From: Psammoneis japonica
Taxonomy: Eukaryota
NCBI GenBank assembly: GCA_008632985.1
Contig: QPGO01000134.1
Location: 62,001-126,000 of the forward strand
Reading direction: 5' to 3'
DNA: 64,000 nucleotides
Below are positions 1,600 through 26,011 of this stretch, piece after piece. The position numbers and the translations under genes were made by a program. The stretch's first letter is position 1. Every line of letters begins with the position of its first letter. The notes under the pieces were generated by a model. That model was not told the DNA's origin. It made no database searches and saw only the letters and a program-made list of their open reading frames with translations.

Positions 1600-3010
1600 T
1601 CCAAACAGGTTGAATTGTTTCAGAACACATTGTCAGGACAACAAAGGCAACCAGGAGAGCCCCATCATTGTGCATTCCCTGGAGGTCCATGAGGAATTCT
1701 TTGTCTGGCAGCGCACACACGCACACACCCCTTGTCCAGCTCCTCATTCATTGCTGACCCCAATGGAAAAATGGGGCTTTTTGCAGTTGAAATGAAGGCA
1801 GTCTCTAACAATTTTTTGCATGCTTCCTGCACCCATCAACAAGGTCCTGAACATCATGGTTCAAACAAACATGGTTGACAATCCAATGAAGACTCTCCAG
1901 ACCCAAGCCATCAATTTGGCAAACTTCTTCATTCAATTGCTTGGATCCTGCAGTTTGGTGCCTTTGTTCTGTCCAGCAAACTCTTTTCTTCACTTGATCA
2001 TTGCTTGCTTCAGGATCTCCTCTTCACCTCCTCCTCAAACCTGCAGTTTCATCCCCTGAAGAACTGTTGTGTGAGATTGCGTCTCAAAGAATGGAGGAAG
2101 CCATGTGGCCCCTGTTGAAAGCAGCCAACAGAGTGCTGGCAGACTGGCCCTGCATTGCTCATTTTCCCACTCATGCTTGGACATGGAACCTCTCTCCCAC
2201 AGCAGCACCTCCCTGTCTTCTTGAAGGAGAAAGAGCTCCTGGCCTTGTCACACATTTTTTGGGGAGGGGGTTCAGCAATTGTCCTACACCGCTTTTGTTG
2301 CCTCTGAACAGTTTTGTCATTTTGTGCGCAGATCACTGATTTGCACTTCTCACTCTCCCTGTCAGATTTGGGCTCCACCAGCTGCTGGCTGGGCATGCCA
2401 CATGAGCCCTTGCAATCCAGCTTTGCTTTTCGTTTCTTGCTTGGGAAAGTGCTGACTGTTGTGGCCTTGATGACAGGTGCCATTCATGGCGAGAATGGGG
2501 AGAGCACTGTCGAGTGTGTGCACAAGGCTGGCATGGCGGCCAGAAGGAATCTTTTGCAGAAACTGTGGGGATGGCAAGTGTGGCAGCACTTGTCTTGTGG
2601 GCTCCAGTGGGCTCCACCGCTTTTTTGCTTGTCGTCAAAGGCACCTGCTGGAAGCTGGTGTTGCGCAAGTGCAAGAACCTGCTGGCAGAAACTCTTGTGT
2701 GTGCCCTTTGCGCTTGCCTGGTCTTCAAGGAGCCTGGGTCACTTTGACACAATTTGCTTTTTATCCAGAAGTGTTTGGAAGCACCAGCTGGTTGTGGAAA
2801 AGACACACAGGTGACGTGGTGTGTGCAGCTGGCGGCAGCCGAGGGCACTGGAGTGGGTTTGTGCTTCCCCAACTGTGAGATGTGAGAGAGGAACTTCTTT
2901 GGCATGTCACCACTTTGTGGCCTTTAGCATTTGTTGTAACACTGCATTTATGAGAGGCTTGTTTCTTTTCAGAATCCCACTTCAAAATGTGTGTGTTCGC
3001 ATTCATGTGA
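1600..3010. repeat. Decayed CpG- and TpA-depleted insertion, unclassified (probable TE relic)
   Basis: Abrupt compositional switch to TG/CA-rich DNA between two normal genes; no recognisable domain; boundaries approximate. Confidence 0.5.
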
Positions 3011-3267
3011 GCCTTGACGATTGACGATGCGTCGAGTGAGATGGGATTCGAAGGATTCATTCGACGAAAGATTTTGCGCGATGCAAACGCGAGAAAAGAT
3101 CGCGTTCGTCACAGCACACTGAACATCACATCATATCTTTGAATCTGATCCCATCAATGAACCAGAAACCAGAAGCCACCGTCACATCTAACATCATCGC
3201 GCTGTCAACAGCTTACACGCATCCAATGCAATAGCATCGTAATCACAAAATTGCCAATGCTCTTATC

Positions 3268-4689: not shown

Positions 4690-7559
4690 TCATATCTTAC
4701 TCTGGACGCGGCAGGCAATGGACACTTCAGTCGGCATCGTCTTCAGATAGAAGTAGCTAAACGAAAGCAGGTTTATAGACTCAATCAATTGCTAGGTACA
4801 CATTAGACAGAATCTACGTTTTGCAACGTGACTGTTCCTCTGATAAAGCAACAAAATGGCTGTTCTCAAGCATCATCCTGTGTGGCTTCCAGCAGCGTGG
4901 TGTAATGACACTCAAAATGATTTTGGACTAGAGAAAACTAAAAACGAAGAGGAAGTTGCGACAAGTTGTTCTTGACTTCATGACTGATGTGACAAGGAAG
5001 GCCGGGCTCCTCAATCCAAGCGTGCAGACTCAAGGACCTCCACCTTACTTGCCATTTCCACCAGAAATGTTTCCAGATGTGTTGTCTTGCATCTTGCCAA
5101 GTCAACTGCAGAGGAGGGTTCCCATTGCAAGGTGCCACTTGATCTTTGTAGTGAGCTTTCCTTGCTGTGTGTGAAGGCGACTCTTTCCCCCACATTTGGG
5201 CCATCTCCCACACCAGCAGGCTGTGCTGTTGGATGCACCATCCATCAATTCCAAAGTCAGTGATTCTTTGGATGCTGCTGTGGTGAGCAACACTCTCTCT
5301 TTGGACACAAGGTGCACCAACCCCTGCAGCTGTTTTTGGAACTGCTCTTGTTGAGCCTCCAAAAATTGAGTGCCTGCATTCTCAAACTGTTCATGTTCCC
5401 CCACCAAGAGACTCCCACAGACATTGCAGCTGACATTTCTTGTGCAATGGCCAGCAATGAGTTGTGAGATGCTCCCTTGCTTGTGACAATGGTGGCACAC
5501 ATGTTGTGTTGACTTGGCATTGTTCTTGCACACAGCACTGCCAGACAGGGTGTCCTTGAGCATTGCATTTTTTGGGAGTCGTCATCCCCTGTCCACAGAG
5601 ATGCACGCATCACCTCATTGACAGTTTCTTTTACCTCCATGATCCAAGCTCCCCCCCCCCATGGAGACAGCATCTGCCTTCCTTTGTGAGTCTGACCAGG
5701 AGGACTGCCAAAACCATCCCTGCCATGAAGGAGCCATGCATTGACTCAAGAAAAACACACCATGGAGCGGATTGCCAATGAAGCCCCTCTCAGTGCAGCA
5801 TGGATTGACCACATTGACCATCCTCAAAAGAACATCTCCACTCTCAGGAGAGCAGTTGTTGACAGGCCTGCAATCATCAAGATGTTGGGAGAAGGTCCTC
5901 TGGCACTGTGATTGTGGGCAGAGAGATGACACGGAGTTCAGCATTTGTTGCACAACAGAGATTGCACCCAAGGCCATTTTGTTGTTCACTGTTCACTGCA
6001 CACAAGGCATCTCACATGCTCCTGCTGAGATGAGTTTTGTTGTCATGCCTCTTGGAAAGTGGGGCAGCTCTGGATGGGCAGAACCCCATGATGGCAAACC
6101 AGCCACAACTTCTTCACCATCAAAGACTGCAGATTGTGTGTTTTCATTGTCAGATCTGTTGCACTCAAACCTGCACTTTGTGGCACCAATGCTTTGGCCC
6201 ATCATGTGTCACCCTCCAGTCACTGTGAGTGAATGCAAGCCATGCATCTGACCTGCAGCACATCCTGGCCATGAATTTGATGCCCACAGCACATGTCAAC
6301 ATGGGCACAAGTTCAGTGTCAATGCATGTGGAAAATGCACCAGTGGGTGGGCGTGTCTCTGAGAAAACCTTCAACAGCTGCCTGAATGGAGGGACCCCTG
6401 TCCACTTTGCACTCACCTGGATGCTGCGGATTTGCAAATCTCCAAGGAGATTTGTCTTTTGCAAAGAGCTCCACAACTTTTGCCCTGTGACCCTCCATTG
6501 CTTTAAAACAAATGTCATGACAAAAAGAGTCACAAAATCTCCATGTCCACAATGGGGTGCCAATGGACAAGCAGCTGGTGTGGAGAGAGTGGCAGAGACC
6601 ACACACATGAAGCCTTGTTTGGAAGCAAAGCAAAGAAGCTGGGTCAGGATGGTGTCAGCTTGCACAAGACAATGCTCAGAAAGCCACAGCTCTTGCACAA
6701 TGAGAAAATGAAAGGGAAGTGCATCCTGAGAGGCATTGAGCTGGCATGAACTTTTTGACGCCATGATGTGCACTGTCATCTTCTTTCAACTCCATCTTGT
6801 CTCAGAGATCTGGTGGATTCACAGAGTGCAGCTGGATGGTGGCATTTCTTCAATGGACATTTCTCCATCCAGTGGGCTGTGCTTCAAGATGTGCACATCC
6901 AACAATCTGACATGTGGCACAAGTGCAACTCAGAAAACATGCACAAACCAGACTGGGTTTGGAATCTGCAGATCATCGGCACCCACATTTGGAAAGTCAT
7001 GAGGGCATGCTTTGGGAACAACACAATCAAGACAACTGTTGCAGAGACCAAACCACTGGGGACTCATCTGAGAGAAGAATGGCAAAAGCAAAGATCACAA
7101 GAATTGGGCATGAGCACAAAAAAGAAGACCTGGCCAAGGATTGTGATTGCCTGGTGTGTGATGACATGGAGGAGCATCTGAGTCACACTTCAACAAGTCA
7201 ATTTAAAATTGGTTGACAACGATGAAGCCAGTTTTCAACAATTGCATGAAAGAAGCACAAGACACAGCTGTGTGGGGTGCCTGCAAGACCACAAGTTGCT
7301 TTGGGTGGATGTCACATGATGCCAAGACAGGCAGTTGCACTCACTTTTGTCAGTGCCTGAAAGTGTGTGTTGCAGCAGTCTGTTTGGTTGGTGTCACTGG
7401 CAGAGCCGCAATGGCACTGTCAAGTTGGCGATGTTTGCTCTTGTCATCTTTTTAAATCAAACTTCTTAGAGTGTTTGTCAACTGTTGGTGCCACAAACAC
7501 AGCCTGCAGACACAAATGCATGCATTTGGTCTAAAGGGTGTGGAGTTGACTGCTGCAAT

Positions 7560-9600
7560 TTTGCTGGCACTGATGACACTGCTGGACATGAAATGGCAAG
7601 GTCATGCACATGACCCCACTTCTGTCTGGAAGGTTGATTTTGAATTTGGCTGCATGACATCTCACAGCTCCAAGCTTTTTGGATCTCCCACTCTAAACTT
7701 CCACTTTTTGTTCTTCTTTGCAACTTGCATGGTGCTGCCAACTGCTGCAGTGTCCTTGACCTTGCCAGCTTTGTCTGCAACTCCAACAATGCAGGTTAAG
7801 TCAGGCTCCATTCCACTGGCCACAAGATTGTCCACAACCACCCCGCCCATGCAGTCCTTCAGTTCAATCAGTGGCACAAGCTTGTGTCTCATGAAATCAC
7901 ATCCTCTTCTCTTCCAACTGGATGGGCAATGGAAGAAGTCTCCATTTCATGCTGGCAATTTGTGAATCTTCACTCAACCCCCATTGGATTTGTGGTTCTC
8001 ATGATGTTCAGCGCTGCTTGTTGCAAGCATTGCAGACACCATCCCCATCATTGTCCACCTGATTGGCATTTGACACAAAGGGCAGTTGTCAAGGTTGTCA
8101 GGCACACCATCTCCATCCACATCTGCACAATCTCTGTCTGTCAACTTCTCCAAAACCCAAAGAAGTTTGTCAGAATTTGCAACAAAATGCAAAGTTCCAT
8201 TGACTGGTGCCAGTTGCCTTGGAAATGAAGAACTGTGGCCAGAGCCAACATTCTCCAGCATTTTGCTTGCACTGCTGGTTGGGTCATGAACCCAGAGATT
8301 GCATCCATGAACAAAATCACTTGCACCAAAGCGCAACTTTCCATCCAGTGGAGTTAAATTCAAAGCAAACAAGAAAGTTCTGCAGTGAGCTGCATTCTCC
8401 ACCAATTGGGTTGTGCCAGCACTGGAATTGTGAACCCAAAGTTTGCCTCCAAGAGCTGCAAAGTGCAAAATCTGCCCACTGGTGTCAACTCATGTGGATC
8501 AGAAGGACTGCAACCAGGATTTTTGTGCTGCACCAGTTGAGTTGTGCTGCTGATGGGATCATGAACCCAAAGCTTGTGTTTGGGCTTTCCGTTGTTGGCA
8601 GAGCAGTGTGGCTTTCCTTCCATCAGCATCAAGCATTGTGTGTCACCCAACATTGCACCAGAGTGTGCAGAGCCTCCTCCACCAATTGAGTTGTGCCACT
8701 GGTGGGATTGTGAACCCAGAGCTCAAAAGTGCAGCTTTGCAGCCAGCAGTGTCAAAAAGCCAGGGCACAAGGAACTGCTGCCTTGGTTGACATTCTTCAC
8801 CAGCCCAGGTGTGTTGCTGATGGGGCTGTGAACCCGCAGCTCCAGTCTGTGCTTTCCATCATCTGCCACAAAGTGCAACTTTCCATCCATTGACACCAGG
8901 CCAAGCAGACCTCAAGAAGTGCCTTTTGGATTGACATCTTTCACCAACAATTGAGTTGTCCTGCTCAAGGGATCATGCACCCAGTGCTCACGTCTGTGTT
9001 TTCCATCATCAGCTGCAAAAACAAGTTGCCATTCATCAGTGTTTCCCAAATGTGCATTTTGGTTGGACCAAATTGGCATTTTGGTCGAACCAAAACACTT
9101 TTGTTGACCAAATTGCCAGACCGACCAAATCAATTTGGTCGACCAAATTGACATTTGCGAAATCTTGACCAAATTCATTTTCAAGTGCATTTCCACACAA
9201 ATTGTGCTGACGCAGCTTCTACGAAATTTGCGTGGCATGTTGACATGATTGCTTTCCAACGGAAGATTCCCTCCAAAGCACGCCAAATTCCGCTGACCAA
9301 AATGACGTTTTCGGGAAACAAAATCATTTTGGTTGTGAGCATCAAATTTGTCAACAAATTTGGTTCGACCAAAATGACAATTTGGTCCGACCAAAATGCA
9401 CATTCGGGAAACACTGTTGGCATCAAATTGTTGAACAAGCATGGCTCCCATTGTTCACAAATTCTGTTGTGTGCCACTCGTGGGATCATGAACCCAGAGC
9501 TCAAATCCACGCACTGCTTTGAACATGTCAAAGTGCAACTTTGAGAGAGATCCACCATCTGTGCAGGGGTGACCCTCTCCACTCACACCTGCCCACACTG
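7560..9600 (-). pseudogene. Degenerate ELWxxDGT-type repeat protein with a thrombospondin type-3-like Ca-binding motif
   Basis: Repeated 'GKLxF.A...ELWVHDP...TQLV' units across frames, followed by 'DVDGDGVPDNLDNCP'; frameshifted and interrupted by a MITE. Confidence 0.65.
9037..9416. mobile_element. MITE with ~58-bp terminal inverted repeats (CAGTGTTTCCC...GGGAAACACTG; hAT-like ends)
   Basis: 9037 cagtgtttcccaaatgtgcattttggttggaccaaattggcattttggtcgaaccaaa is the near-perfect reverse complement of the end at 9416; internal gaccaaa repeats; no clean TSD seen. Confidence 0.8.
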
Positions 9601-12600
9601 GGAGAATCAAAAGCCCCCGGCAAAAACAGGATTGAAGATCTTCTGGTGCAAAAGAGAAGTGGTGAGAGCAATGAGACTGCCAGATGGACAGACAGCCAAA
9701 TGGAAGCAACAAATCCATTTCTGTGCCCGACACCATGTGAAGAGGAAATTGGGTGGGTGACTGGAGCAGCACCAATTTGGCAGCAGCAAGTTGCCAGGGA
9801 GCAGCCAAGGCAACAAGCAACAATGACTCCAAGCAGTGCAACCCCCCACCATGGGAGGCTTGCAACATTGACAGGGTTGGGGCAAGCAGATTCCAAGATG
9901 CTTGACTTCCCAAAAAAGACAGTGGATTCATTTGCCTCATTTGCAGCATGCAGAGAATCCATCTGCATGATGCAGTGCACAGATGGAAGCTTGCAGCATG
10001 CAGGAAAGTGAGCTGTGCCAAGGAGAGAATGTGTGTCAACTGAGTCAATCACCTTTTTCATGATGCACCCAATGACAACTCAGTCAATGATGACACCAGC
10101 ATGCTTGCATTCAATCTGCTTTCCCAGAGCCATCTTAAAAGTGGCCAAAGGCAGGATCAGTCACTTCACCCACACTGCAAAATGGGAAGAAGAGACTCCC
10201 AGAGCTGTCTTGAAAGCAGCCAAAGGATGAGTCACTTCACATCTGTTGCAGAACAGGAAGAAGAGACAGCTGGAGAAGAGGTTGCCTTGGAGCAGCGGCA
10301 TGGGTGGGGGCTCTGTCTTGACATGAGGTAGTCTGGGCTGCACATCCATGGCAAAATGAGGTGGCAGTGTGGCCTTCTGGGGAGCAGCAGAGGCACTGGA
10401 GGCTGGAATGTGGGGTGGGTTCCAGGTTGATGGTGGTGGCAGCAGAAGACAGAGCAGTTGCTGCAGGGTGCAACTCAACAACAGGGTGAGTCACATTGTG
10501 TGCAGCAAGTGTCTCAGTGGATGGAGTGAGACAGCTGGGGGTCCACATGTTGCATCGGTTGCAGGTGCAATTGGCAAATTGCCATCTTGAGCCAATGCTG
10601 GGGAGGACAGAGTGGCCTGTGTCAAGGACAGTTTTGCTCACCAGAACGATGCTGTCATCATTTGCACAGCCAGAGCAACAAAGCCATGTGCCACAACCCT
10701 TTGCATGTGGCTGCCTTTCCTTTTTAGAGTTTGTCTGACATTCCAGCACAGCACACTGTGGCATTGTTGTCCAAAGATGCTGAAGAAGAAGAAGCTTCTT
10801 GATGATGGACATGTGATCTTTGTGCTGCCAACCATCAAAAAAGCAAAAAAAAGCCTTCAAAGTTGTGCAGCTGACCAATGTGCTGCATGGCAGAGTCATC
10901 TCTCTCTTGAGATTTTGGCCCAGGAAAAGCATGACAAACAGTGAGATGTCCCAAACATTTTTTCAATGAATTTTGTGCCAGAAAACATTGGCCCAAAACC
11001 TTTTTGAGGTTCACGCCCACTGCGCACACACCAGCAAAGCTCAAGCGGGTCCATGTCTCCCCACAGCAGTCTCAGCTGGACAGCAGCCATGCCTGCCAAA
11101 GCAGCTGGCCTTCTGAAATGGCTGCTGGCTGGCGGCAAGAGGCAGAGATTGTGCCTGCCATGTGAGCCAACAAGGGCTGCCTCAGCTGCGGGCCTGGCAC
11201 ACCAAAAAACAGATGTGTGACGTGTTCCAGTCCCAGGTGACGCACAAAACGACAATCGATTTTGAATATAAATTATGTATCTTTTAGTGTATGTAGCATT
11301 TTCATATAAAATACTTAAGCGGATTGGCTTTTATAGGCGTTGAGAGTATGGACATTTAAATAGTTTTTTGTGGGGTATTCAAGTCCTCATGGGATATGTA
11401 TCATAAACTTCCTCAGTAGACTCAATACTGATTGTACGTCAGTAGATTTATACTGAGATTTCTTTGTAGGTAGAAAACCTACCATGTAGCATCGTAGAAA
11501 GATATATTTAGGTAACATCCAAATAACGGCAATATTTTCGCCGAAAATCATCCGTTGTGTTACGAATCTATTAACGCAATGAAAAACATAGATAGCACAA
11601 TAACAATGACATTGCAACACTCACACGAGTCTTGTTAGTGTTGCAAAACATTTATATTTGTATAAATCTATACTTTTGGTGGTGAAAGTTCGATCGTAAG
11701 TTAGGGACCTCGCAAAAATCGCGCAAATGTCGTTTTTGTGCACGATTTGGTTCACGTGCGGCTGGAACACGTCGTGTGCAAAATGCGGCCTGGCCTGTGT
11801 CCCATCAACCACAAATGACCCAACATTTCTTTTCTCTCATTCTTTTTTATGACAGATGCTTTTGCACCAAAATTCTTTGCAGCAATGAGGCAAGTGACAC
11901 ATCACAATGGCGCAGGTGCAGCTCGTCTGCTTTTGAGAGTGCGGCAGCCAACATGGCTGGAGCTCCCATTGTTCCACAATCCCAAAAATTTGTTTGAAAT
12001 TCACGGCACTCGGGCAGAGGGAACCGTGGTGAAAGCAAGGTTCAGAGTGACAATGGGAAAGTGTGTCATGGCATTAACGACTTCAGCATAAAATGTGATC
12101 CCTTGGCATTGGTGTGTCATGCGTCAACAGGGTGCAACAGTGTGTGACGTCAGCGACAAAGTCCTGCTTGCGCTTGCTTGCTTGGTGAAGATTCGGCAGA
12201 ATGACCGCACATCACCATGAACAAAAAAATTTACATCACAATCAACATTGTCATGCATGAGTGATTTTAAAATTCTAACGGGACAAGGGACAACCAGACC
12301 CGCGAACCGACCAACACCGATGAAACTGCGACCGCACTGGCACATGCACATCGACCATGGCGTTGTCGGTGATCCTAAAGTAAAACTACAGTACATCGCT
12401 ACTCTAGAGGGGCACTGTAACACATAACAGCCGGGAAAGTCAACTCGTTCGTTCCATCTTTGCTCTCCCCTTGCTCACCCTGAACCCGTTAGTTGGAATG
12501 CACTATGTGTCATTATTTTTGGAATTTTCTGCATACATCATAATGGCGCGGTTTTTTATTCCATTATTCAGGGATATATATTTTAATTGAATATGTACTG

Positions 12601-12928
12601 GCGCTATATTTTGTTCTGCCATTAAAAAAAACATTATTCCGATTCTATCAACTAGGATCTGATACAAAGCAGTAATATAAGCTCTAGTGAATGAATACTC
12701 TTTTGGTTTAACGTTGTATATCTGCCAATGCATTCGAAATTTTGGATGGCCTCGAACTCATCCGTCACTTTTCTGTGCACGACCAGCACACACAACGACC
12801 ACACCAACACCCTCATTTTTCTTTTTGGCTACCACCGACGTCGCAGTCCCCATAGTCGTCCTCTTCGCTTCGCAACTGTTGTTCACTCTTGAACTTGTGC
12901 CGTCTCAAACGTAGACTACACCTCCACC

Positions 12929-14134
12929 ATGCGCTTTATATGCGGAGCTCCTCGATCAACGAAGCGCAAGACTCAGGCAGACGGCGAACTAGTTGTGCGC
13001 ATTCGTGGCATGTCCAGCGCTATTCCAGGCTTTAATGGGGTACCAGGAGCCAGTATCTCTACGGAAACCATTTGCCGGGAACTTCGTGAAAATTACGGTA
13101 TTCATAATCCCAAGAACGGCAAAAAATTAGCTGATGACTGGGCCGTTCGAAACCTAGACATGACGCACATTGCTGTAGGAAGGAAGCCAGAAGGTCTCGA
13201 GGGCCGTATCCCTGCGGAGGAAATGCAGTTCAACGGCGAAATCACGGAGGAAGAGCTCATGTTCCGCAGCTTTGACGAGGCTTTGAAGAAAGCGCAGACC
13301 AAGGTTGAAGACATTGACGTGTTACTCTACGTCTCCTGCACAGTTGATGAAGTTTACTTCAACGAAGCGGGGACTGAATGGTACAAGCGCTACCCGTCTC
13401 TTTCCAAAAGACTTCAAATTATGATTCTGCCTTACGGTTGTCCGGCATTGGTTCATGAACTCAGACTGGCCATGCAGTTGCTTCATTATCCGAAAAACAA
13501 GAACGTGGCCATCGTGATCAGCAACGGCACTTCCAAGTTTGCTGTACAGGAGAGGCAGAGGCAGGCTTTCTGCGAGGGCAACGAGCTTAAGCGGTGGGTG
13601 CATTCATGCATCTTTGGGGACGCAGCCTTTTCCTGTATTGTGTCGACCTCCACCAAAAACCTTCCAAAAACCACCTACAAGCTGGTGGACGTCGACATGG
13701 TATGTGATCCACAAACTACCATTTCATGGCGCTTTTCTATCAACCCCAACGACGGCGGTCCGCCACTGGATATGTTTGAACTGAACCCGGAAGGTACAGT
13801 GTTCATTAAAGATAGTCTTCGCTATTGGCTTGCTTCCTTGGCAAAGCAGGGTTACAAGTTGGATTCTTTCCAGCACGTTGCATTCCATCAGGCCAATCCC
13901 AAAGTTATCAGACTGGTAGCTGAATACTTGAAATGCTCGGATAAAACCTCAGTCGTTGGAGCAAAGTTTGGCAACTTGGCAGCTGCGTCAGTTGGATGTG
14001 CCTTACATCATCGTCTCGAGCTCTCCGAGAAGAGTCCGCAACACGGGGACCTGGTTTTTGGATATGCCTTGGGGTCCATCACGGGTAACTCTCATGGGAT
14101 CTTCATTCTAGAGTGCGACATTCGTGAGGAGTAA
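12929..14134 (+). CDS. 3-oxoacyl-ACP synthase III (FabH/KAS III)-like condensing enzyme, intronless
   Basis: Cys-His-Asn triad motifs 'YGCPA', 'FHQAN', 'FGNLAAAS'; 'IFGDAA'; 'EDIDVLLYVSCT'. Confidence 0.85.
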   Translation: MRFICGAPRSTKRKTQADGELVVRIRGMSSAIPGFNGVPGASISTETICRELRENYGIHNPKNGKKLADDWAVRNLDMTHIAVGRKPEGLEGRIPAEEMQFNGEITEEELMFRSFDEALKKAQTKVEDIDVLLYVSCTVDEVYFNEAGTEWYKRYPSLSKRLQIMILPYGCPALVHELRLAMQLLHYPKNKNVAIVISNGTSKFAVQERQRQAFCEGNELKRWVHSCIFGDAAFSCIVSTSTKNLPKTTYKLVDVDMVCDPQTTISWRFSINPNDGGPPLDMFELNPEGTVFIKDSLRYWLASLAKQGYKLDSFQHVAFHQANPKVIRLVAEYLKCSDKTSVVGAKFGNLAAASVGCALHHRLELSEKSPQHGDLVFGYALGSITGNSHGIFILECDIREE

Positions 14135-17100
14135 AAGCGTTGAAGAGGAAGCCACAGTGTTTGCTTGTTTTTGCATTGGAGTATGATATCTAAATGATTA
14201 TACTAGGAAAATTACGATTTTGTGTGAACTCCACTAGTGTTTCACTCATTGCGCACATTGGCTGGCATGGCTTCGGCGTTGATTCTTGGAGCAGGATGCA
14301 ACCGCTTGGAATTGAGCTTGTGTGAGAGGACACAGATGCGCACCGAGATGCGGTCAGAACACGCAGAGGTCTAAGATCATTGCATTGGGGCCCTGGCCGC
14401 AAATTGGTGTCCTTCGCTCACAACTGACATGGTGCTCTCCTGTTGATCTAAGAGATGCATGGCAACACTGCATTGAATCAAATTGGAGGACAGACAAGTG
14501 AGAAGATCTTGGTGGAGATCTGGCCAGGTCACTCTGGCCATTGATCTGTCTCCTGATGCTTGCAATGTCATTGAGAAGAGAGTGCCAATGATGACCCAGA
14601 GTTCCTTGATGGCAGAATGACTTGCAAAGGGCTGACCACAAAAAGGACAAATGGACAAGGCATTGAAAGAGACTGCAGAGAAATGACCCACATTTGCATG
14701 ATGTTTTTTGAAGCTCTGAATAAAGACTGGGAGTCATGAAAACCATGAAATGCATGACATGTTGAAGCACGCTTCTCTGCATTGGCAGGAAACTCAAAAT
14801 TTGGTTGCTCTGTGCTGCCATTGTTGTTGTTGTTGTAAAGAGCAGATTGGCGTTCACATGTGCTGCATTTTCCGTTCACAGGTGCAACTTGTTGTGTGCA
14901 CCGCTGGCCACAAAATCTGTGTTGTGGTCTTCTTCACCCCCCAACAAGAAGACATTGTAACAATGAACATTTGCCAAAGAAGATGTTCTTCCACATGACC
15001 ATGGAGAAACCAGACATTGCAGTTGAGGGAGCCAGGGAGTCATTGAATGTGTGGCAAAGTCCAAGCAAACATGAGGCTTGTGGCTCAAAATGAACAAATG
15101 GCTTGCAGATGCAGCTGGTGATGCAAAAGTGTTGCCCTTGCTAAAATTGCCAATGCTTTTTGCAGACATTTTTCTTTCTGAGTGGTGGAACACTAAAAAG
15201 CAGTGCATGCACTGACAAAAAGAAAAAGAAGAGTGCTGCATGATGGTGAAGAGAGCACAGTGTGCACTCTCATTTCGGCAATGGCAAAAGCTCATCACTG
15301 CCTCCTTTGCTGCTGCCATGCACTTGGCAGTGTGAACAATGCCTCATTGCAGAACACACTGTGCCACAAAACATGCAGTGAGTTGGTCTGCAATGTGCTT
15401 GTTGTTTGGAGCCAGTTTGCCTGCAGCAGCAGCTGTCCATCACATCAAATGTGGCACCTCTCTTGTTGAACCAACAGGTCAATGTCACCAAAAGGGAATC
15501 CTCTGAGGATTTTTGCACCACTTGTTGCACTGATCCTGGTCTCCATGGTGGTTGTGGTTGGCCCAGAAGTTCTCAACAAACATCAATCTTACAATGCAAT
15601 GGGAACCAACTGACACCACAATGTGGTTCATGCAAAGCAGCAGTTCACTCGAAAGAGTGAGCTGAAAAGAAGGTTGGTGAGATCATCAACAAGTGTGCAT
15701 TTATTTCCAAAGTGTCATCTGATCCACCACACCAGGATCTGAAGCATCTTCTCTTCAAAAGATTTGCTTCTAAGTCTCTCACATTTCCTGCTCATCTGGA
15801 TGCTCTGACACACTCCTGCTGCTCCAATTGATGTTTGGAACACTCGCTCCACACACACTGGAGCAATCCCATCAGGGATCTCCAAAATGAATTTGCTGGG
15901 CCATTGTCATTCACCACAGCACATTGCCAGTTGGCATGTCACCCTTCGTTGGCAAAATCCAACATGTCATTGAAGGCATTTCTTGCAATGTCTCAAATGC
16001 GTTCCACAAACTTGGCAATGTGGGCATGGTGAGTCCACTCCACTTGGTCCTGCAGTTTGTGAGGATCAACCGGTTGGTCCATGATCCAGCAGTTGAGGGC
16101 CACTTCAGGAATTGTCACAAATGGTCCCATCTTTGGACAATGCCGCTTTAAATGGGATCTTGACTTGATGATGTCATGACAAAAAAACAGCACCAACTTC
16201 TGTGCATCAAAGGCAAATCCATTCTTGTCTCAGACTGGTCCACACCAGACCTTCTTGCAATGCTCATCTTCCATCAAACTGAGCTTCATGGGCAGGCTGC
16301 AAACCCCTTTGTTGTCCATGCCACATCTGAGACAGCTGACTCTTGACATGTGTGTCAGTGCACAAATGTCTTGTTTGTCCAGGTCCAGAATGAGTTGCAG
16401 GTTCCCATTCCTGGACCCAGCCTTGCATTGGTCCGGAATCATCTTCTCATGCTTGTTGAGCTCTTTGTAATTTCAGCAACATGTCATGCCCTGGTGCAGT
16501 TTGAGATCAAATGACAAACCAAACATCTGTCATTGCTCACCAATTCCACACAGCCTTGCATCTTCCATGGTGTTTTTGTTGTCATGTGTGGAGAACATCA
16601 GTGCAGTGGCAGACACACACCTCAGCTGACTGTCGGTCCAATGCATCCCGTCAATTTTGTGCAACTGCTTCACAGCAATGTGCCTTTGCTTCCACAATTC
16701 AACCACAGTGGTTTGAGTGTCACAGTGTTTGTGCATGGCACATTTCCGACTGTGTTGTTCCCATCATCACAATTGATCATCAACTGACACAGGTCCACAG
16801 CATCCTCACACTGATGTGGACAGGCTGATGCGCTCATCTTGCTGCTTGCAAACCAATCTGTAAGATCCACTCTGCAAATGTGAAACTTGATGCTGCTCCC
16901 ACAACATGCTCTGTGGGATGACATCTGTCTTGCTGTGTTCCTCAGTCACCAGCAGTCTTGTGGGATCACCCAGCTCATCAAACCATGGCCAACAATCATT
17001 TGGCCACTTCTGTGCAATGGGTGCAAACTTCTCATCATCTGCAATGACAACCACTTCATCCATGATCATTGTTCTGTTGCACAATCAATGTGTGCAGGTC

Positions 17101-17229
17101 TTGAAGCTCTTGTTGCCATGTTCACTCTGAAAGTGGAGCTTTCAGGGATTCACCCACATGCATCAGAAATTCTTGCCTGACGTCACAAAGAACAGGTCTC
17201 ATGCCTGTTGGGCTTGAAGTCAACAACCC

Positions 17230-20200
17230 ATGATGGCTCACTTGAGCTTCTGAAACTTGCTTCTTGCCTTGCAACAGCTTCATCATGAAGTCTCCCAACA
17301 TGTCATGGCCAGGGCAATGCTGTGCTTGCAAGTTGTCCTTTTCAATCTGATTGGCAACAAAGAAATGTGGGATGTTGAGTGCTTGTGACCACTTGCCAGC
17401 ACTCCTGCACCCATTGGTCTCCAACAGGACGGCACTCTTGTTGTCCTGATGCAGGATGTTCTTGTCAATCAGATGCCCCTGGTGCTCCATGAAGAGCTTC
17501 ATCCACAGCATCATGGCCATGGCATCATTGACTCCAACAAGCTCAGCTTCTGTGCTGCTTTGGGTGTTGAGCTTCTGGTGCTTTGAGATGGCCTGCACTG
17601 CTCCATCACCCACAGTCACAACTCCTCTGGTGTGTCTCTTGAAATTGAGGAGTGCTGCAAATGATGCATCCACATGCCACTTGACAACTCGGAGGTCCTT
17701 TGCTCTTGATGCAGCAACTTTGTTTTCTTGTCCGGTTCATGCACTTGAGGCAATGGACCAGCTTCCCCCAATCCTTGTTGGTGGGGGCTCTTGCTCACAT
17801 GCATGATGTGGTGACAGTGGGGTGCACATCCATTTGGCCTCTCTCAGACAGGAACAGTCCCTTGGCCACCCACGTGTGGAAGATCTGAGCCTTCGCGTCC
17901 CACAATCTTGTGCCGCTGGTGTCAAACATCTTCTCTCTGGCTGGTGTCATCACAGAATCTGCACTCTTTGTCTTTTCTGGGAACTGATCAATTGTCTTGA
18001 AAATGCAGCCTGCAATGTCAACCCTCACTTTTCCTTTCTGGCTGAAGTCCAGGGTCATGCTGAGACAATTGTGTCTCTTCCCTCGTGCAATGACAACTTC
18101 TCCATGACTGCCACACACATTGTCAAGCCAGCGCAGGAATTCATCATTCACCTCTGGTTCTTGTGGCTTGACAACAGGTCATCCACATGAAATCAAATCA
18201 TGTGCTGCTTGCCGTGAACTGTGCAGTTGGCAATGCATGGATCACACAGGTTGAACTCAAAGCAACCCTGTCTTCTCCAAGTCTTTGTGGAATTTGCTGG
18301 TGAGAAACATCAAGGCTGCCATGGCCTTGGTCCTTTCAGTTGGAGTCACACACTTGACTGATGATGCTGGTGCACAAAGCACACTCATTCATGCGACTGC
18401 TTCATGTCTTTCTGCAAGTCTTCATGCCCCTTCTGGCCAAAATTCTTTGAGGACTTTGTGGAGCAAACATTGCTGGGCAAAACATGTGCCCTCTCCACTT
18501 TGGAGTTGGTTGCCAATCTTGCACATGAAGTGTGTGATTGTCATTGCTGTCTCCACTTCACACACTTGATGTTGTCTTTTGGATTAGGATGACTCACATC
18601 AGCAGGCAGGTGGTGGCTGCACTTGAGCTTGCACTGCTTTTTCACCATTCTGCCCACTTCTGCCACTCCTGCAAATCAAACTTTCTTCTTTTTATGTTCG
18701 CGCAACTTCATGTTGAAGGATGCTCCACTCCTTGGCATTCTGTCAGGAACATGGCTCTTGCTTCTTCCTCCAGTCAGTTTCCCACCCAACTGTCATCCTC
18801 TTTGGACTCTTTGTTGTCACACTCTTCATTCTCTTTGACTTTTTGCTCTTCATGAGCTTTGTGTTCCTCATGAGCTTTGTGCTGTTGATCAGGACTGGAC
18901 CTTTCATTGGCCAGCATCTCATTTGCTTGTTCTTTGCATTCATCATCTGACCCAGGTTTGTCTTCACAGTCTTTGTTTTCTAACTCAGTTGTGCAGCTTG
19001 CATCATGTTTGCTTTCTTTGCAGTCTTCTTCTTTGTCATCACTTTTGTTGTTGCTGTCACTGTCACTTTTGTCATTGTTCACTCCTGCAGTCCCATCAAC
19101 ATCACATGCTGGATTGTCTCCACATCTCACTGTAAACTTGAGTTCCTTGATGCCCTGTTGCATGGCCTTTTCCTTGACAGCCACAATGCACAGGTTGGCC
19201 AAGTGAGTGGAGGTGCACTTGTGGAGATTCAACAACTTGTTGCTTGTGTGCAAATTCACAGCACAGTGGCCACCCTTGGGTGAGTTGAAATGTGGTTGCA
19301 GGTGGATGCTGTTGACACCATGTGCTTTCACAGTGTTGGTGTTGTCACACTCAATCAGCATTTGATCATCTTGTCAAACACATGCAGTGTCAAAACACTG
19401 CACACTTCTGCTGTGTCAATGCAGAGGGTCACACACCTTCTCTCTGTTCCTCACAGATCTCAGGCAGAACGGAGACAATGTCGTTCCTCTCATGGTGGGA
19501 ATGGCGCACATGCTTGGTCTTGCTTTTGAGTGTGTGTCCATTGGTGGACCCCACATGGCCGCCATTCTGTCAACATCTTCAGGTGTGATGGATGGGTTCT
19601 TCACCTGATTGGATCACAGCGACAGCTTGAAATCCATTGCAATGGCTGTTCCAGCCGTGCAACGCAGTCTCAATGCTTCCGCAGTGCTAGACACTTCTCA
19701 TTTAGTGCAGCCTTTCATGCTCTGTTTCACAGTTGGGACAACAGCTCCTGATGCACTGCTGTGCATCTTGTTGATCTTCTTCATGACCTTCTTGTCCTTG
19801 GACAGCGTGCTCACATGTGACTCATCTTCTTGGAGTTCTTTTGTGTGGTCAAAGAATCACTGGCTTGTTGCAAACATGCACAGTCCAACGTTGTTCACTT
19901 TGAACACCGTGACCTGCTTGCCAGTTCTTTTTTGTCTGATGGATGAAGCTCATCTGCCACTCGGTTGTCACACACAATGCAGTGCTTGCTGCTCTTTGCA
20001 TCCTTGAGACTCAGGATGTTTGGCTGTTGCATTCTGTGATCCAAGCTTCACATCACCCCATCCAGGCATGGTGCAGTCTTCATCTGGGGCATCCACTCAT
20101 GCATTGGTGGATAGATCAATGTCCTGATCCTTGCTGGTCATGCATTGTGCACTGATCTCTGGCTCACTGCCATGCCAAGGGCAGAGCCATTTTGAAGGAT

Positions 20201-22660
20201 GATCTCATTTGACTTGACAAATGTGTTGGCTTGGCTCAAACTTGTCTCTGGCCCTTCTTTGGCCTGTTCATCCAATTGGAGCCCATGCCATGTGATGTGT
20301 CTTCTGCTGGAGCTTGCAGATTGACTTGATCTGTGGGTGTTAATGCTGGCATTGTTGCTGCTTGCAGACAAGGTGTCTTCATTTCTCTGTGTGTGACTCT
20401 GTCCCCTGATGTCCAGTTTCCTGCCAGCGTTCTTGTGCCAGTCCTTCTGCAGAATCTCATCCTCACACCTGCAGTCTGGGGACTTGCAATTTGCTTTGCC
20501 ACAACAATGGCATGCCATCTTGCCACTCTGTGCATGACTTTGGTCTTGTGGATTCTTGGACTTGTCATTGCTCTCATTCTCTTTCTTGTCACTCAGATGT
20601 TTGTCACTCTTCTTGTTCCACCTCTTGTGTGAATGGTCATCTTTTGTTGGATGGTTCAGCAACACATCCATTGCCTTCTCAAGGGTCTTTGGATGTGTGA
20701 ATCCCTCCCTGGGCTGCAATCTCTCACAAGGCTCTCCTTGAGAATCTTGCAGCAGCAGTCATCACTGTTCTCCATGAACAGGTGTGTTGTCCATGTCTTG
20801 AACATGCAGCATCACTCAGCACTTTCTGGTCCACTGCATCAGTGCAGTCCTTGCACTCCATGGCATTCTTGATGAATCCATTTGACATCTTGCTGCCAAG
20901 ATCTTTGCTTGCAGTGTCCCATTGATTGCTGAATCTTGACAGGCCGTCATTCAGTGACTTGTCCTCCAACTGCTTCAATTCCAGCACGTGCCTCACAGAC
21001 TTGACAAGTGCACGGAACAGGTGTCGACCTCGCATGGAGTCGAGTGCAAGCAACTGGATTGGCTTCAGTGGCTTGATTGGGTTGTCACTGATCCCTGCAC
21101 AACTGGGATTGGCTTGCACTGTTTGCTTCATTTGCTTGGAACAGTGATCTTTTAGGATCACTGTGAGTGCAGCACTCTTGTTCTCTTTGAGCTTCTTGAC
21201 TTTGTTGTTGTGGTCATGCCACTTGATCTTGTGCTCACATTCCAGTTGCCTTTCTTCTCTGGCCCTCTCATCTTTCAGGGTCTGGCAGTCTTTGGCTGAG
21301 CTTTCTGGCACTGCGGTTGTTGCCTTTGCCAGTGTTGGTTTCTCACCATCGAACTTCATGCATTTCATGTCTTCCAGGGACCTTGCCATGCACATGCCTC
21401 TGTCATGCTCCTTCTGCACATGGTTGATGATCTTCTCCTTGTCTTCTTTGAATGTCACATTGCATGAGTTGCTGTTGATTGATGATGGGCAAAACTTCAT
21501 TTCTGGCTTGAACCTCTTCTTGGGGTCAGTCTTCTTGTTCTTGTCACAGCAAGACTGACAGAAATTGAAGGCAAATGGCAAGAATTCAAACAACAACTCC
21601 TTGCTGCTGTCTAAACAGCAGATGAGTCTCCGCTCAGAGACCGTCACAGGAGCCGAAAGACGTGCAAGTTGGTGCAATTGGGCCACTGTTGTTGTTCTTG
21701 TGAGCCGAGTGGCTCAAAAGCAAACTACATCGCATGCACACGCGCGGAACTGAAGAGCACAAAACTGTGCGTGGCAAACTAAACAGCGCGTGACATGTCG
21801 CGCGCACCTGAATCCTGTTCAAATCCTGTCACTCCCCAGTTTGCTTGAGGAGTCACAGAAACAGATTCGACTTCGGGTTGACTAAAGAACTTTGGAGTCA
21901 AAGCACCAAAACATGAGGAGACAAGAAAGGATCAAGATCCGAGAGCAATGTTGCATTCTCCAAGTGGGTCATCTTGAGATGAGCTGCGTCTCCCCAATTG
22001 CAGATGCCGTTGTGCTTTTCAAAGCTCAAGGCACACTTGGGATCTTGTGGGATTGCACATCCGCACTTGCAATGGAAGGAGCAAAGCTTGGTCTGGTTGA
22101 CAATGTTGAATGGCGGGGCAACATTGCAGGACAATGCAAACAAGTTGACATCGCCTTCACTTCCTGAGCAAAGGTCGTAAAGACTGATGGCCGTCTGTTG
22201 GTTCTTGGAACGGTTGCCACACTGGGCTGCTGCTGGAAAAACAGAGCAGTGCTCGTGCAGGGTGGCATGGCATTTGCACGACTCGGGGAACAGAGCAAGC
22301 ATGAGTTCAAAGGCACAAGCGGTGGCAAGAATTCAAACAATGACTCCTCACTGCTGTCTAAATGGCAGATGAGTCTCCGCTCAGAGACCGTCACAGCCGA
22401 AAGACGTGTGAGTCGGTGTGATCGGGCTGCTGTTGTCATTCTTGTGAGCCGAGTGGCTCGAAAGCAAACTACATCGCGCGCGCATGCGCGGAACTAAAGA
22501 GCACAAAACTGTGCGCGGTAAACTAAACAGCGCGTGACATGTCGCGCCCACCCAAATCCTGTTCAAATCCTGTCAAAGACTTCCTGCCTCTGCCGCCCCT
22601 GCCTTGGGCACATCCTCAGCTTTTAGCAGCACTCATTCTTCCTCCTCCTCTGCCACTCAT
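17230..22660 (-). mobile_element. Degenerate Ty1/Copia (CoDi-like) retrotransposon: gag, Zn knuckle, protease, partial integrase, RT, RNase H
   Basis: RNase H 'DASFA...QKLNTQSSTEAELVG...QDNKSA...DMLGDFMMKLLQG' (17122-17673 ORF); RT 'FEFNLCDPC..FHVDDL' near 18170-18265; knuckle 'CHCCGKANCKSPDC'; gag starts MSGRGGGR at 22660; many stops and frameshifts; its own LTRs not identified. Confidence 0.9.
21556..22575 (-). mobile_element. Short (1020 bp) non-autonomous LTR element nested in the Copia gag, TSD AAGAC
   Basis: TGACAG...CTGTCA termini; AAGAC at 21551-21555 and 22576-22580; full LTR at 21556-21831 with the PPT (ctccccag on +) beside it; second LTR 22323-22575 truncated. Confidence 0.9.
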
Positions 22661-22737
22661 GGCTCAGGTTTCCTGTTTCAGATGATTGAATGGAGGCCAG
22701 TGCTGCATGCACCAAATGCAGTGCCTGTGACTCTTTG

Positions 22738-25113
22738 TGACAGGATTTGAACAGGATTTGGGTGCGCGCGAAATGTCGTGCGCTGTTTAGTTTACCGCGC
22801 ACAGTTTTGTGTGCTTTAGTTCCGCGCGTTCGCTCGCGATGTAGTTTGCTTTCGAGCCACAAGGCTCACAAGAATAACGACAGTGGCCCGATTGTGCCGA
22901 CTTGCACGTCTTTCGGCTCCTGTGATGGTCTCTGAGCGGAGACTCATCTGCTGTTTAGACAGCAGTGAGGAGTCATTGTTTGAATTCTTGCCATTTGCCT
23001 TCAATTTCTGTCAGATTAACAGTCTTGTTTGTTCGTTCGTCCACAGCGCCTAACGCCTGCGTCAACTGGCCAGCCTGATCGGGAAATCCAACCGATGTAA
23101 AATAAGAACGGTTCGGGGGTCTTGTCCACCTCTAGTCAGCTTACCTGCAGGGGTTTGCAACCCGCTGCTCCGCTTGCAAGCAACCCAAAGCGCCACTGGC
23201 TGCGGGTTCGGACGTGCCGGCACAACTCTATGGACCGGATGGGAAGTTTAGCACTTGACAACGAACGGGATAGCACACCCCGGCGACTTCTGATTTTAAG
23301 ACAGTCCAAGATTGGATCCCCCAAGTCTCGTACCTCGAGACCAGGCCTCCTGATTGGATGTCCCAAGTCTCGTACCTCGAGACCAGGTCTCCTGATTGGA
23401 TGTCCCAAGTCTCGCACCTCGAGACTGGGCCTCCTGATTGGATGCCTCAAGTCTCGTGCCTCGAGACTGGGCCTCCTGGTTGGATCCCCCAAGTCTCGTA
23501 CCTCGAGACTAGGCCTCCTGATCGGATGCCTCAAGTCTCGTACATCGAGACTGGGCCTCCTGATCGGATGCCCCAAGTCTCGTGCCTTGAGACCAGGCCT
23601 CCCAACTGGACTCTCCACGTTTCGTACCTCGAGACCAGGCCTCCTGACTGGATGCCCCAAGTCTCGTACCTCGAGACCAGGCCTCCTGATTGGATGCCTC
23701 AAGTCTCGTGCCTCGAGACCAGGCCTCCTGATTGGATGCCCCAAGTCTCGTACCTCGAGACCAGGTCTCCTGATCGGATGTCCCAAGTCTCGCACCTCGA
23801 GACTGGGCCTCCTGATTGGATGCCTCAAGCCTCGTGCCTCGAGACTGGGCCTCCTGGTTGGTTCCCCCAAGTCTCGTACCTCGAGACTGGGCCTCCTGAT
23901 CGGATGCCTCAAGTCTCGTACATCGAGACTGGGCCTCCTGATCGGATGCCCCAAGTCTCGTGCCTTGAGACCAGGCCTCCCAACTGGACTCTCCACGTCT
24001 CGTGCCTCGGGCCTCCCAGTTGGATCCTCCACGTCTCGCACCTCAAGACTCGGCCTCCGGATTGGATCCCTCAAGTCTTGCACCACAAGACTCGGCCTCC
24101 TGATTGGATCCCCCAAGTCTCGCACCTCAAGACTTGGCCTCCTGATTGGATCCCCGAAGACTCGTGTCACAAGACTGGCAAGTCCTTTTAGATCCCAGAA
24201 GTCTTGCAGCACGGGACTGGTTGCCCCAATCAGACATCTGCAGCCTTGCACCACAAGATGTCTTGCTCCAATCCAATCCCCGAAGGCTTGCACCTTGAGA
24301 CTCGTTTCTCCAATTGGATCAGTCTCTCAGGAGATGCAGCTGAGCTTGCAATCGGATTGGTGGAACACAAGACCACCGCTTGTGCCTTTGAACTCATGCT
24401 TGCTCTGTTCCCCGAGTCGTGCAAACGCCATGCCACCCTGCACGAGCACTGCTCTGTTTTTCCAGCAGCAGCCCAGTGTGGCAACCGTTCCAAGAACCAA
24501 CAGACGGCCATCAGTCTTTACGATCTTCGCTCAGGAAGTGAAGGCAATGTCAACTTGTTTGCATTGTCCTGCAATGTTGCCCCGCCGTTCAACATTGTCA
24601 ACCAGACCAAGCTTTGCTCCTTCCATTGCAAGTGCGGATGTGGAATCCCACAAGATCCCAAGTGTGCCTTGAGCTTTGAAAAGCACAACGGCATCTACAA
24701 TTGGGGAGATGCAGCTCATCTCAAGATGACCCACTTGAAGAATGCAACGTTGCTCTAGGATCTTGATCCTTTCTTGTCTCCTCATGTTTTGGTGCTTTGA
24801 CTCCAAAGTTCTTCAGTCAATCCGAAGTCGAATCTGTTTCTGTGACTCCTCAAGCAAACTGGGGAGTGACAGGATTTGAACAGGATTTAGGTGCGCGCGA
24901 AATGTCGCATGCTGTTTAGTTTACCGCGCACAGTTTTGTGTGCTTTAGTTCCGCGCGTTCGCGCGCGATGCAGTTTGCTTTCGAGCCACAAGGCTCACAA
25001 GAATGACAACAGCAGCCCGATTGTGCCGACTTGCACGTCTTTTGGCTCTGCTGTTTAGACAGCAGCAAGGAGTCATTGTTTGAATTCTTGCCATTTGCCT
25101 TCAATTTCTGTCA
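22738..25113 (+). mobile_element. Non-autonomous LTR element (2376 bp) of the same family, TSD CTTTG
   Basis: LTRs at 22738-23013 and 24867-25113 (the latter with a ~29-bp deletion); CTTTG at 22733-22737 and 25114-25118; PPT-like aactggggag before the 3' LTR; no gag/pol inside. Confidence 0.92.
23311..24320 (+). repeat. 42-bp minisatellite, ~24 units, with a higher-order 9-unit duplication
   Basis: Unit ~ccaagtctcgtacctcgagaccaggcctcctgattggatgcc, translating as PKSRTSRPGLLIGC; degenerates towards the right end. Confidence 0.95.
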
Positions 25114-26011
25114 CTTTGGAGTGAACATTGAACCAACAGATGTCAATGTCGCCAAAAGGGAGTCCTCAAAGGTTTCCTGCGCTGCTCATCACACCTGTCC
25201 TGGTCTCTGTGGAGGCTGTGATTTGTCTTGAAGTTCTCAACAAACATTGATCTTGTGATGCAATGGGCACCCACTGACACCACAAAGCAATTCGTTTGAA
25301 CCAGATGATCAACTCCGAAGAGCGAGATGAAAAGAATGTTGGTGATGTCGGCAATGAAGAATGCACACTCATTTCCAAGTGTCACCCAATCCACCACATC
25401 AGGATCCAAAGCATCTTCTCTTCAACAGATTTGCTTCTAGGTCTCTCATGTTTTTGCTCATCCAGATGATGTTGTTCCAACATCTCTTGCACCGAGATCA
25501 CACCGCTCCAAAGCAAGCACTGAAAAATGTCGCCAGTGCTCGCGAGACCCAGGTTGTGCCTCTGAATGTTGAACCAGCATGATCAGCCTTTGAAATTCAG
25601 TGCCATTGTTTTGCTGACTTTTCTTGTCTTGACGGCTTTCAATGATGAAGTGCAAGGTGGTCCACACACATGGGGTTGGGGTTAATTTCCTCAGAACCCG
25701 CCTGACACAACGCACAACTGGCGATGGGCCGTCACACGTCAAAACCTACTCCTACATGTACAATAAGCACAGTACGTGGTAAACAATGAACATTTTCATT
25801 AATAATTTTTTTGAATTGACCGAATTTCAGAGTATTCCGTTGAACACTGAATAAATGTATAAGATGCTTAATGCCATCATTTCATCCTGAAGCCGATACT
25901 GTTCAGATGATCTCCAATCGCCCACTTTTTGCGATTTATTAGGTCAGTCGCAATACTTTTCAAAGCATAAAAAACACTAGCCGACGAATTCGAACAGAAC
26001 AGAGAATTAAA

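Follow-up and report, generated by a model that had tools for sequence, protein, structure and literature searches.

Loss of TA and CG by transitions in a copia-like retrotransposon and adjoining DNA of the diatom Psammoneis japonica

Introduction

What process strips nearly every TA dinucleotide, together with most CG, from bounded blocks of a diatom genome? The question is raised by a 64,000-nucleotide stretch of Psammoneis japonica (GenBank assembly GCA_008632985.1, contig QPGO01000134.1, positions 62,001 to 126,000 of the forward strand), referred to here as the window and numbered from its first base. The affected DNA includes a decayed Ty1/copia long terminal repeat (LTR) retrotransposon at 15464-25752 and a second large block at 4950-11218. 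An earlier note, drawn from the sequence alone, had proposed that a TpA-specific process acts on silenced repeats beside the decay of CpG. Our analysis indicates that the blocks are probably silent selfish or dead nuclear DNA of the diatom, rewritten in place by two context-specific transition processes, of which the second would be a TpA hypermutation of the type reported from the chlorarachniophyte Bigelowiella natans.

Results

TA and CG give way to TG and CA in discrete blocks

Dinucleotide contents were taken as observed over expected values, in a 1-kb sliding profile and in a full dinucleotide table across the window, and the TA and CG expectations for individual blocks were set by the window's own background. 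At 5000-11000 and 14500-21400, TA is reduced to 0.04 and CG to 0.12-0.13 of expectation, as against 0.57-0.59 and 0.92-0.96 in the remainder of the window. The same table shows gains in CA (1.84-2.01) and TG (1.84-1.87), with the other 12 dinucleotides lying between 0.75 and 1.23. As the number of pyrimidine-purine steps is normal and only their identity is altered, transitions are indicated as the cause.

Four TA-poor blocks were delimited (1600-3130, 4950-11218, 14236-25752, and 47423-48978), with TpA ratios of 0.03-0.24; the second and third are called blocks 1 and 2 below. Counted over 4950-11266, block 1 has 15 TA where 245 are expected (P = 2e-83) and 52 CG where 355 are expected. Block 2, counted over 14236-25746, has 70 TA against 429 (P = 9e-103) and 254 CG against 662. 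On the right of block 1 the last TA stands at 10725 and dense TA begins again at 11267, and block 2 has TA edges at 14235/14372 on the left and 25683/25747 on the right. The left edge of block 1 is gradual, at about 4850-5150, and the CG edges are softer than the TA edges. The earlier note had counted 0 TA and 3 CG in 18001-18300 and 5 TA in 13021-13080, which is exact, and the sharp edges that it placed at ~11250, ~14230, and ~25745 correspond to TA edges found at 11267, 14235, and 25747. Inside its span, 4850-25745, the part at 21555-25113 is only partly depleted (TA 0.24, CG 0.70), and two of the four blocks, 1600-3130 and 47423-48978, lie outside its coordinates.

Across all TA-poor blocks 102 TA sites survive, with CTAA/TTAG and TTAA contexts enriched and ATAT and ATAC/GTAT nearly absent. 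This bias may reflect a flanking-base preference or an effect of repeated units; many of the survivors lie in repeats and are not independent, and we have not built upon it.

Independently built contigs carry the eroded bases

A public sequencing run, X1, contains 91% of the words sampled from 14000-22000. Its contigs, at a depth of ~63, show 5 differences from the window over the 4269 bases of 4800-9068, none in 13246-15507, and one in 15479-17366. Contigs built independently and at even depth reproduce the eroded bases, which are thereby confirmed as real, and the base-calling or polishing artefact that the earlier note had listed as a possible refutation is not what we find. A miscall of modified bases is further disfavoured because at a palindromic TA it would split the reads between TG and CA and break the contigs, neither of which is seen.

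Conserved codons of the copia element give the direction of change

Read on the minus strand, the element at 15464-25752 has a 5' LTR at 25126-25752, which pairs with a 3' LTR at 15464-16106. Its internal region (16107-21554; TA 0.03, CG 0.13), found by tblastn with intact polyproteins, holds a gag zinc knuckle at about 20468-20695, an integrase at 18660-19733, a reverse transcriptase (RT) at 17700-18322, and an RNase H at 17260-17706. A search of a representative library with the open reading frame (ORF) 17125-17736(-) gave 7816 relatives at E <= 0.001, the best of them 59% identical. Judging by the order gag, integrase, RT, RNase H and by the direct LTRs, 15464-25752 is a decayed Ty1/copia LTR retrotransposon. 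Pfam gives no match on its eroded Pol frames, and a target-site duplication was not resolved at its ends. At 25747 the TA edge lies no more than about 15 bp from the outer end of the 5' LTR.

Polarity was judged at 124 Pol codons conserved at 70% or more in at least 20 relatives, of which the window retains 88. Tyr is kept at none of its 6 conserved positions, having become Cys (TGY) at 4 and His (CAT) at 2, whereas 88 of the 118 other codons are kept (Fisher P = 4e-4); the YVDD motif of the RT has lost its Tyr and is translated as HVDD. Further changes of the TA-to-CA type are V to A (GCA, twice) and L to S (TCA, once). Conserved Arg survives at 2 of 7 positions, its replacements being CAA (twice), TGA, CAT, and CCA, and changes of the CG-to-TG type appear as three T to M (ATG) and two P to L (CTG) replacements. 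No loss is seen at conserved Ala, Cys, Glu, Ile, Asn, and Gln. Such changes at conserved codons imply that the TG and CA now present at these sites descend from TA or CG, and the replacement of Tyr by both Cys and His indicates that both strands were affected. For the copia element, two further tests that the earlier note had set as possible refutations of its proposal come out on its side. The changes at conserved Pol codons are TA-specific, and related elements are not TpA-free to begin with: in a comparison set of 80 copia loci from metagenome contigs, 76 have a TA ratio of at least 0.44, with a median of about 0.64.

The element was eroded after insertion

The LTRs of a retrotransposon are identical at the moment of its insertion. 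Aligned with transition-tolerant scoring, the copia pair gives 599 aligned bp with 138 transitions and 56 transversions, and at 30 steps one LTR has TG where the other has CA. If the ancestral LTR held ~25 TA and ~31 CG sites, as background frequencies would have it, and if these decayed independently so that half disagree, about 28 discordant steps are expected; decay of CG alone would give about 15.6 (P = 8e-4 for 30 or more). A tandem gene duplicate that served as control (30182-32418 and 32985-35233; ~2.2 kb, 75% identity, transitions to transversions 242:246) has 4 TG/CA-discordant steps among 488 mismatches. As the LTRs disagree at about the number of steps that independent decay of TA and CG predicts, the copia element had a normal TA and CG content at insertion and was eroded in place.

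A second comparison comes from a high-copy element nested inside copia at 21555-25113. It is 3.56 kb long; its inverted ends of about 770 bp are made up of ~277-bp units, and 42-bp units form an array in its centre at about 23310-24178. Summed contig depth over 21475-23475 reaches 56505-120595, against ~63 for single-copy DNA. On other contigs, a unit of this element is joined to sequence resembling that at 15464, the LTR start. At the TA and CG ratios given above for 21555-25113, the nested element is partly eroded, TA having been lost first.

The arms of the nested element (21556-22325 and 24373-25113) are 90.8% identical, and 31 of their 42 differing sites fall at pyrimidine-purine steps, compared with 88 of 488 in the control duplicate (P = 1e-13). 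Among the differences, 6 pair TA with TG or CA, whereas the arms have only 3 TA in common, and 17 are of the type CG/TG or CG/CA. By arithmetic on these very small counts, decay per arm is estimated at 0.50 for TA, 0.29 for CG, and 0.7% for other sites. Within single-copy eroded DNA, an X1 contig has CGTA where the window has CATG (6607, 6609) and CA where the window has TG (8818-8819). From such differences the TpA process looks recent or still running. The loss of all six conserved Tyr, the LTR discordance, and the arm differences together uphold the central claim of the earlier note, that a second, TpA-specific A:T to G:C process has acted after insertion beside CpG decay.

TA loss is separable from CG loss and even between strands

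The two kinds of loss do not run in step, which shows that two processes are at work and not one. The copia LTRs, which are of the same age, have kept 3 and 3 TA in the 3' and 5' copies against 5 and 17 CG (binomial P = 0.017). The margin 10726-11266 has 0 TA against 19.9 expected, and the first 185 bp of the eroded stretch 14236-15463, which lies left of the copia element and has 7 TA and 15 CG in 1228 bp, hold 10 CG against 12.6 expected and only 1 TA. In every eroded block of the window the TA ratio is below the CG ratio.

The TA loss is also specific to its context and blind to strand. AT and TT are normal in the eroded blocks, which disfavours GC-biased conversion. TG and CA stand at 669:720 and 861:771 (698 TG and 751 CA for 4950-11218), and a runs test on their order gives Z of 0.0-1.7, with no strand-coherent runs. 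This balance without runs points to many independent single events on either strand, unlike one-strand RNA editing or processive deamination.

Copy number alone does not decide which DNA is eroded

On its right, block 1 ends sharply at the junction with an insertion at 11219 that resembles a miniature inverted-repeat transposable element (MITE). This MITE-like element (11219-11773, 555 bp) has 22-nucleotide inverted ends (11219-11240 and 11752-11773) and, although it adjoins eroded DNA, is itself uneroded, with TA at 0.93, CG at 1.37, and an AT-rich composition (GC 0.36). It is a high-copy element: its summed contig depth is 5428-16527 against ~63 for single-copy DNA, and contigs break or have loose ends at its ends. 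Block 1 itself (4950-11218; 15 TA and 48 CG in 6269 bp, TA 0.04, CG 0.13) is single-copy at 4800-8800, at a likeness of at least 80% and an X1 depth of ~65.

Block 1 contains at 7977-10048(-) a decayed, frame-shifted gene with ELWxxDGT repeats and thrombospondin type 3 repeats. Among its ORF pieces, 4 of 8 match TIGR04534 (ELWxxDGT_rpt; E = 7.6e-10, 2.2e-5, 1.6e-4, and 0.026), each match being a single repeat and under the whole-protein cut-off, and a TSP_3 match is weak (E = 3.6e-4). By these matches 7977-10048 is a pseudogene of an ordinary-looking gene and not a transposon. Four of the repeat units, spotted by eye in the translation, read LHF, where the family consensus is presumably LYF.

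Repeat-targeting, as the earlier note had it, is not shown by these data: a high-copy element has normal TA, single-copy DNA is eroded, and an ordinary-looking gene has suffered the same fate. As the MITE-like element is uneroded at high summed depth, copy number alone is not the trigger, although the old eroded families may still have been repetitive at the time of their mutation. Only a few hundred bases away from eroded blocks, intact genes have normal TA and CG. Between blocks 1 and 2 lies an intact 3-ketoacyl-synthase-like gene at 12893-14131(+), with Pfam matches to ACP_syn_III_C (E = 1.9e-9) and FAE1_CUT1_RppA, and the surrounding 11500-14100, taken as an internal control, has TA at 0.59 and CG at 0.92.

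Other features of the window

The leftmost block, 1600-3130, has 6 TA and 31 CG in 1531 bp (TA 0.06, CG 0.33), and its scanned ORFs of at least 100 amino acids have no Pfam match. At the other side of the window, a TA-poor island at 47423-48978 has 11 TA against 56 expected (P = 3e-13) and 64 CG against 94 (TA 0.12, CG 0.65); its neighbours, both of normal composition, are a porphobilinogen deaminase gene on one side and a CRAL/TRIO gene on the other. The island carries a minus-strand frame of 470 codons with one stop inside, its ORFs 47414-48100 and 48101-48823 being adjacent and in frame; for ORF 48104-48823(-) we found no relatives and no Pfam family at 0.01. The gene that flanks block 2, 26597-29011(-), encodes a cytochrome-b5/amine-oxidase protein with relatives in Thalassiosirales diatoms at ~70% identity and a best relative at 76%. 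These relatives mark the window as nuclear DNA of a diatom.

Searches for further features returned little. Pfam on 41 ORFs of the region gave only the 3-ketoacyl-synthase-like gene and three sub-threshold, chance-level matches, and Pfam on six-frame read-throughs of the eroded DNA (X at stops), like the Rfam and tRNA scans, gave none. Self-comparison in a purine/pyrimidine alphabet found no repeats beyond those found by BLAST. Transition-tolerant alignments between blocks (scores 98-295 over 1-5 kb) were long and low-scoring and were treated as meaningless.

A similar signature in other copia loci

Three of the 80 metagenome loci, L020, L059, and L042, have TA at 0.23-0.25, CG at 0.65-0.86, and TG/CA at 1.31-1.65. 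Of their 12 conserved-Tyr cells, 9 hold His or Cys, against 19 of 308 in the other 77 loci (P = 1.5e-8), and 11 of their 12 conserved Arg are retained. These loci would thus represent TA-only erosion outside this genome, in other hosts. Two proteins of a public library, P0255 (504 amino acids) and P0225 (151 amino acids), contain zero Tyr and have H or C at the same columns.

Discussion

Under the reading that we prefer, two processes would act on these blocks. The first would turn CpG into TpG or CpA, presumably by deamination of 5-methylcytosine. The second would change A:T to G:C at TpA, giving TpG or CpA on both strands equally and site by site; by a rough estimate it would be at least as fast as CpG decay, and it would halt at element junctions with no fading out. 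We infer from this pattern a process that is enzymatic and targeted, presumably with a guide. In its likeliest chemistry, adenine in DNA would be deaminated to inosine and then read as G during copying, and its likeliest agent would be a deaminase of the tRNA-adenosine-deaminase kind. In tRNA the substrate of these enzymes, A34, as far as is known always follows U33, and their action on A after U is part of the reason for preferring adenine deamination.

The same kind of locally targeted TpA hypermutation would be that of the integrated viruses of B. natans, studied in mutation-accumulation lines (Mettrop et al., bioRxiv 10.64898/2026.01.13.699255). Of 302 nuclear mutations found there, 231 lay within two regions of integrated virus, and 230 of the latter changed A to G or T to C, all at TpA. 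Mutation ran at about 6e-7 per site per generation and was confined to some of the lines; the authors propose DNA adenine deamination, with an ADAT2 homologue as candidate. Our blocks share with this case the change of TpA to TpG/CpA on either strand, with A:T to G:C only (here besides the CG change), and the confinement to delimited foreign or selfish DNA (edges here at 11218/11267, 14235, and 25747, the last at the LTR end). They also share the footprint of TpA depletion with CpA/TpG gain, which in B. natans is found in RT and DDE genes too.

The differences from the B. natans account concern host, target, and extent. B. natans is a rhizarian, whereas the host here is a stramenopile diatom, and in place of giant-virus and virophage DNA, it is an LTR retrotransposon, an inverted-repeat element, and the remains of a repeat-protein gene that are hit here. 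Erosion is here near saturation (TA 0.03-0.08), compared with 0.45 in the hypermutable virus region of B. natans. CpG decay is overlaid here, whereas TpA changes only are described there, and the rate, measured directly in the B. natans lines, is here reached indirectly.

Among other known systems, repeat-induced point mutation (RIP) of ascomycetes likewise makes context-specific transitions in selfish DNA, in place and within fairly sharp limits. As a cause it is ruled out, since it turns C to T mostly at CpA and creates TpA, whereas here TpA is destroyed (0.03-0.08) and CpA gained (1.84-2.01). RIP requires duplicated sequence; here a high-copy element is untouched and single-copy DNA eroded, though the old families may once have been repeats. 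According to Hoguin et al. (PMC9998398), many diatoms have DNMT4 enzymes of unknown function that are related to fungal RID, and methylation of transposons occurs in diatoms. Decay of methylated CpG would account for the CG half of the signature, as seen in the change of Arg to CAA, TGA, or CAT, of Thr to ATG, and of Pro to CTG, and in the 17 arm differences of the CG type. It cannot remove TpA, and CG loss is here the patchier of the two, as the unequal CG counts in LTRs of one age illustrate.

The alternative that fares best would place the chemistry on the other base of the pair. A dioxygenase of the TET/JBP type might oxidise thymine at TpA, and the resulting 5-hydroxymethyl- or 5-formyluracil, by mispairing with G, would turn T to C. 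In dinoflagellates, hydroxymethyluracil occurs by preference at TpA and TpC, and 5-formyluracil promotes T to C mutation. As T to C on one strand is A to G on the other, the signature, polarity, and strand data fit this route equally well. No feature of the sequence favours it over adenine deamination, however, and TC is undepleted in the eroded blocks (0.96-1.10); we regard thymine oxidation as unlikely.

A single deaminase of dual specificity, acting on C at CpG and on A at TpA as one system, would explain why both depletions coincide across most of blocks 1 and 2. It also has a precedent in the ADAT2 of amphioxus and Trypanosoma, cited in the B. natans preprint as acting on A and C in DNA (bioRxiv 10.64898/2026.01.13.699255). 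Yet LTRs of the same age differ in the CG and not in the TA that they keep, and the nested element, the island, the block margins, and the three metagenome loci have lost TA and kept most of their CG. In B. natans, too, TpA changes only are described. A shared enzyme for both changes seems to us quite improbable.

Hyper-editing of animal retroelements by ADAR and APOBEC is a further known source of deaminase-driven, clustered transitions in selfish elements. It acts on RNA or cDNA and leaves strand-asymmetric clusters, whereas here the strands are even, runs are absent, and the changes are post-integration; according to the B. natans preprint (bioRxiv 10.64898/2026.01.13.699255), ADAR favours targets in which the edited A follows a U. 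Retrotransposon RNA or cDNA edited in this manner before integration would insert already mutated and would predict erosion that stops at element ends, as is seen. Such an origin is very unlikely given the equality of the strands, with Tyr turned to both Cys and His, and given an LTR disagreement that matches independent decay. An inverted-repeat element that is not a retroelement and a decayed gene are eroded as well, X1 contig and window differ at TA/TG and CG/CA steps in single-copy eroded DNA, and conversion this near to complete would need many rounds. ADAR-type A-to-I editing of the sense strand, considered as a candidate of its own, was rejected on the Tyr changes (4 to Cys, 2 to His) and the runs test (Z 0.0-1.7).

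It is more doubtful still that the composition is intrinsic, with active forms of the elements avoiding TA and CG, for instance under selection by RNA-level sensors or nucleases. The nested family, by arithmetic on its arms, does seem to have been TA-poor before the arms diverged. Against this stand the ordinary TA content of 76 of the 80 related copia loci, the LTR test, which indicates normal content at insertion, and the damage itself, which has destroyed conserved residues (YVDD to HVDD in the RT) and created stops. Error-prone repair synthesis of the polymerase eta type (WA to WG), recruited to methylated DNA, was one of the two candidates of the earlier note and would yield A to G after T. 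It would also deplete AA, which stands at 1.15-1.16 in eroded blocks and 1.13-1.17 elsewhere, and TA loss is complete where CG, presumably the mark of methylation damage, is least affected, which leaves this candidate hardly credible. An artefact of sequencing, base calling, or polishing at modified bases, for which the uncertain standing of X1 (see below) might be cited, has a negligible chance in view of long k-mer contigs that match at an even depth of ~63 (4269 bases with 5 differences, for example), the conflicting reads and broken contigs that a palindromic miscall would give, and a Tyr to His/Cys pattern that recurs in contigs from other collections.

Several points weigh against rewriting in place by a TpA process of the B. 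natans type. All eroded blocks come from one 64-kb window, and an uneroded high-copy MITE-like element sits directly beside block 1. X1, for which no library type is recorded, is possibly the source of the window's own assembly. The 30 TG/CA-discordant steps of the LTRs are not divisible into former TA and former CG, and ordinary scoring, over 335 bp of the LTRs, gave 13 such steps. The nested family was probably TA-poor already before its arms diverged, as their ancestor is reckoned at ~12 TA in 741 bp. The ~90-fold (TA) and ~45-fold (CG) acceleration over background that follows from the arms is arithmetic on counts of 3, 6, 21, 17, and 11, and so an indirect figure and not a measured rate. 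Outside the window, L020, L059, and L042 are short (1138-2256 bp), and P0255 and P0225 could come from the same species as the window.

The earlier note had known of no description of such a system in diatoms. Full-text literature searches, which took in no preprint supplements, likewise found no report of TpA erosion in diatoms, whereas outside them the same signature is known in B. natans (bioRxiv 10.64898/2026.01.13.699255). In the literature searched, this kind of process has been described before in one preprint on one chlorarachniophyte, and what is new here is its occurrence in a diatom and on transposons. The present case would place the process in a second, ecologically dominant lineage, would extend its targets from integrated viruses to retrotransposons and dead genes, and would have it run apart from the methylation decay of CpG. 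As eroded elements evade domain searches (Pfam is blank on the copia Pol), transposons would be under-annotated unless pyrimidine-purine transitions are tolerated. Some diatoms are transformable and gene-editable, which would make both enzyme and guide approachable by knockouts and reporter transgenes.

A broader proposal, which we consider possible though short of probable, is that diatoms have an active TpA-editing defence, independent of cytosine methylation and homologous to the Bigelowiella system, that mutates selfish and dead DNA to saturation. If this is true, the TA-only eroded copia loci of the metagenomes would be footprints of the defence in further hosts, and TpA-directed DNA editing would be an old immune mechanism of the stramenopile-alveolate-rhizarian (SAR) supergroup, probably carried out by a relative of the tRNA adenosine deaminases.

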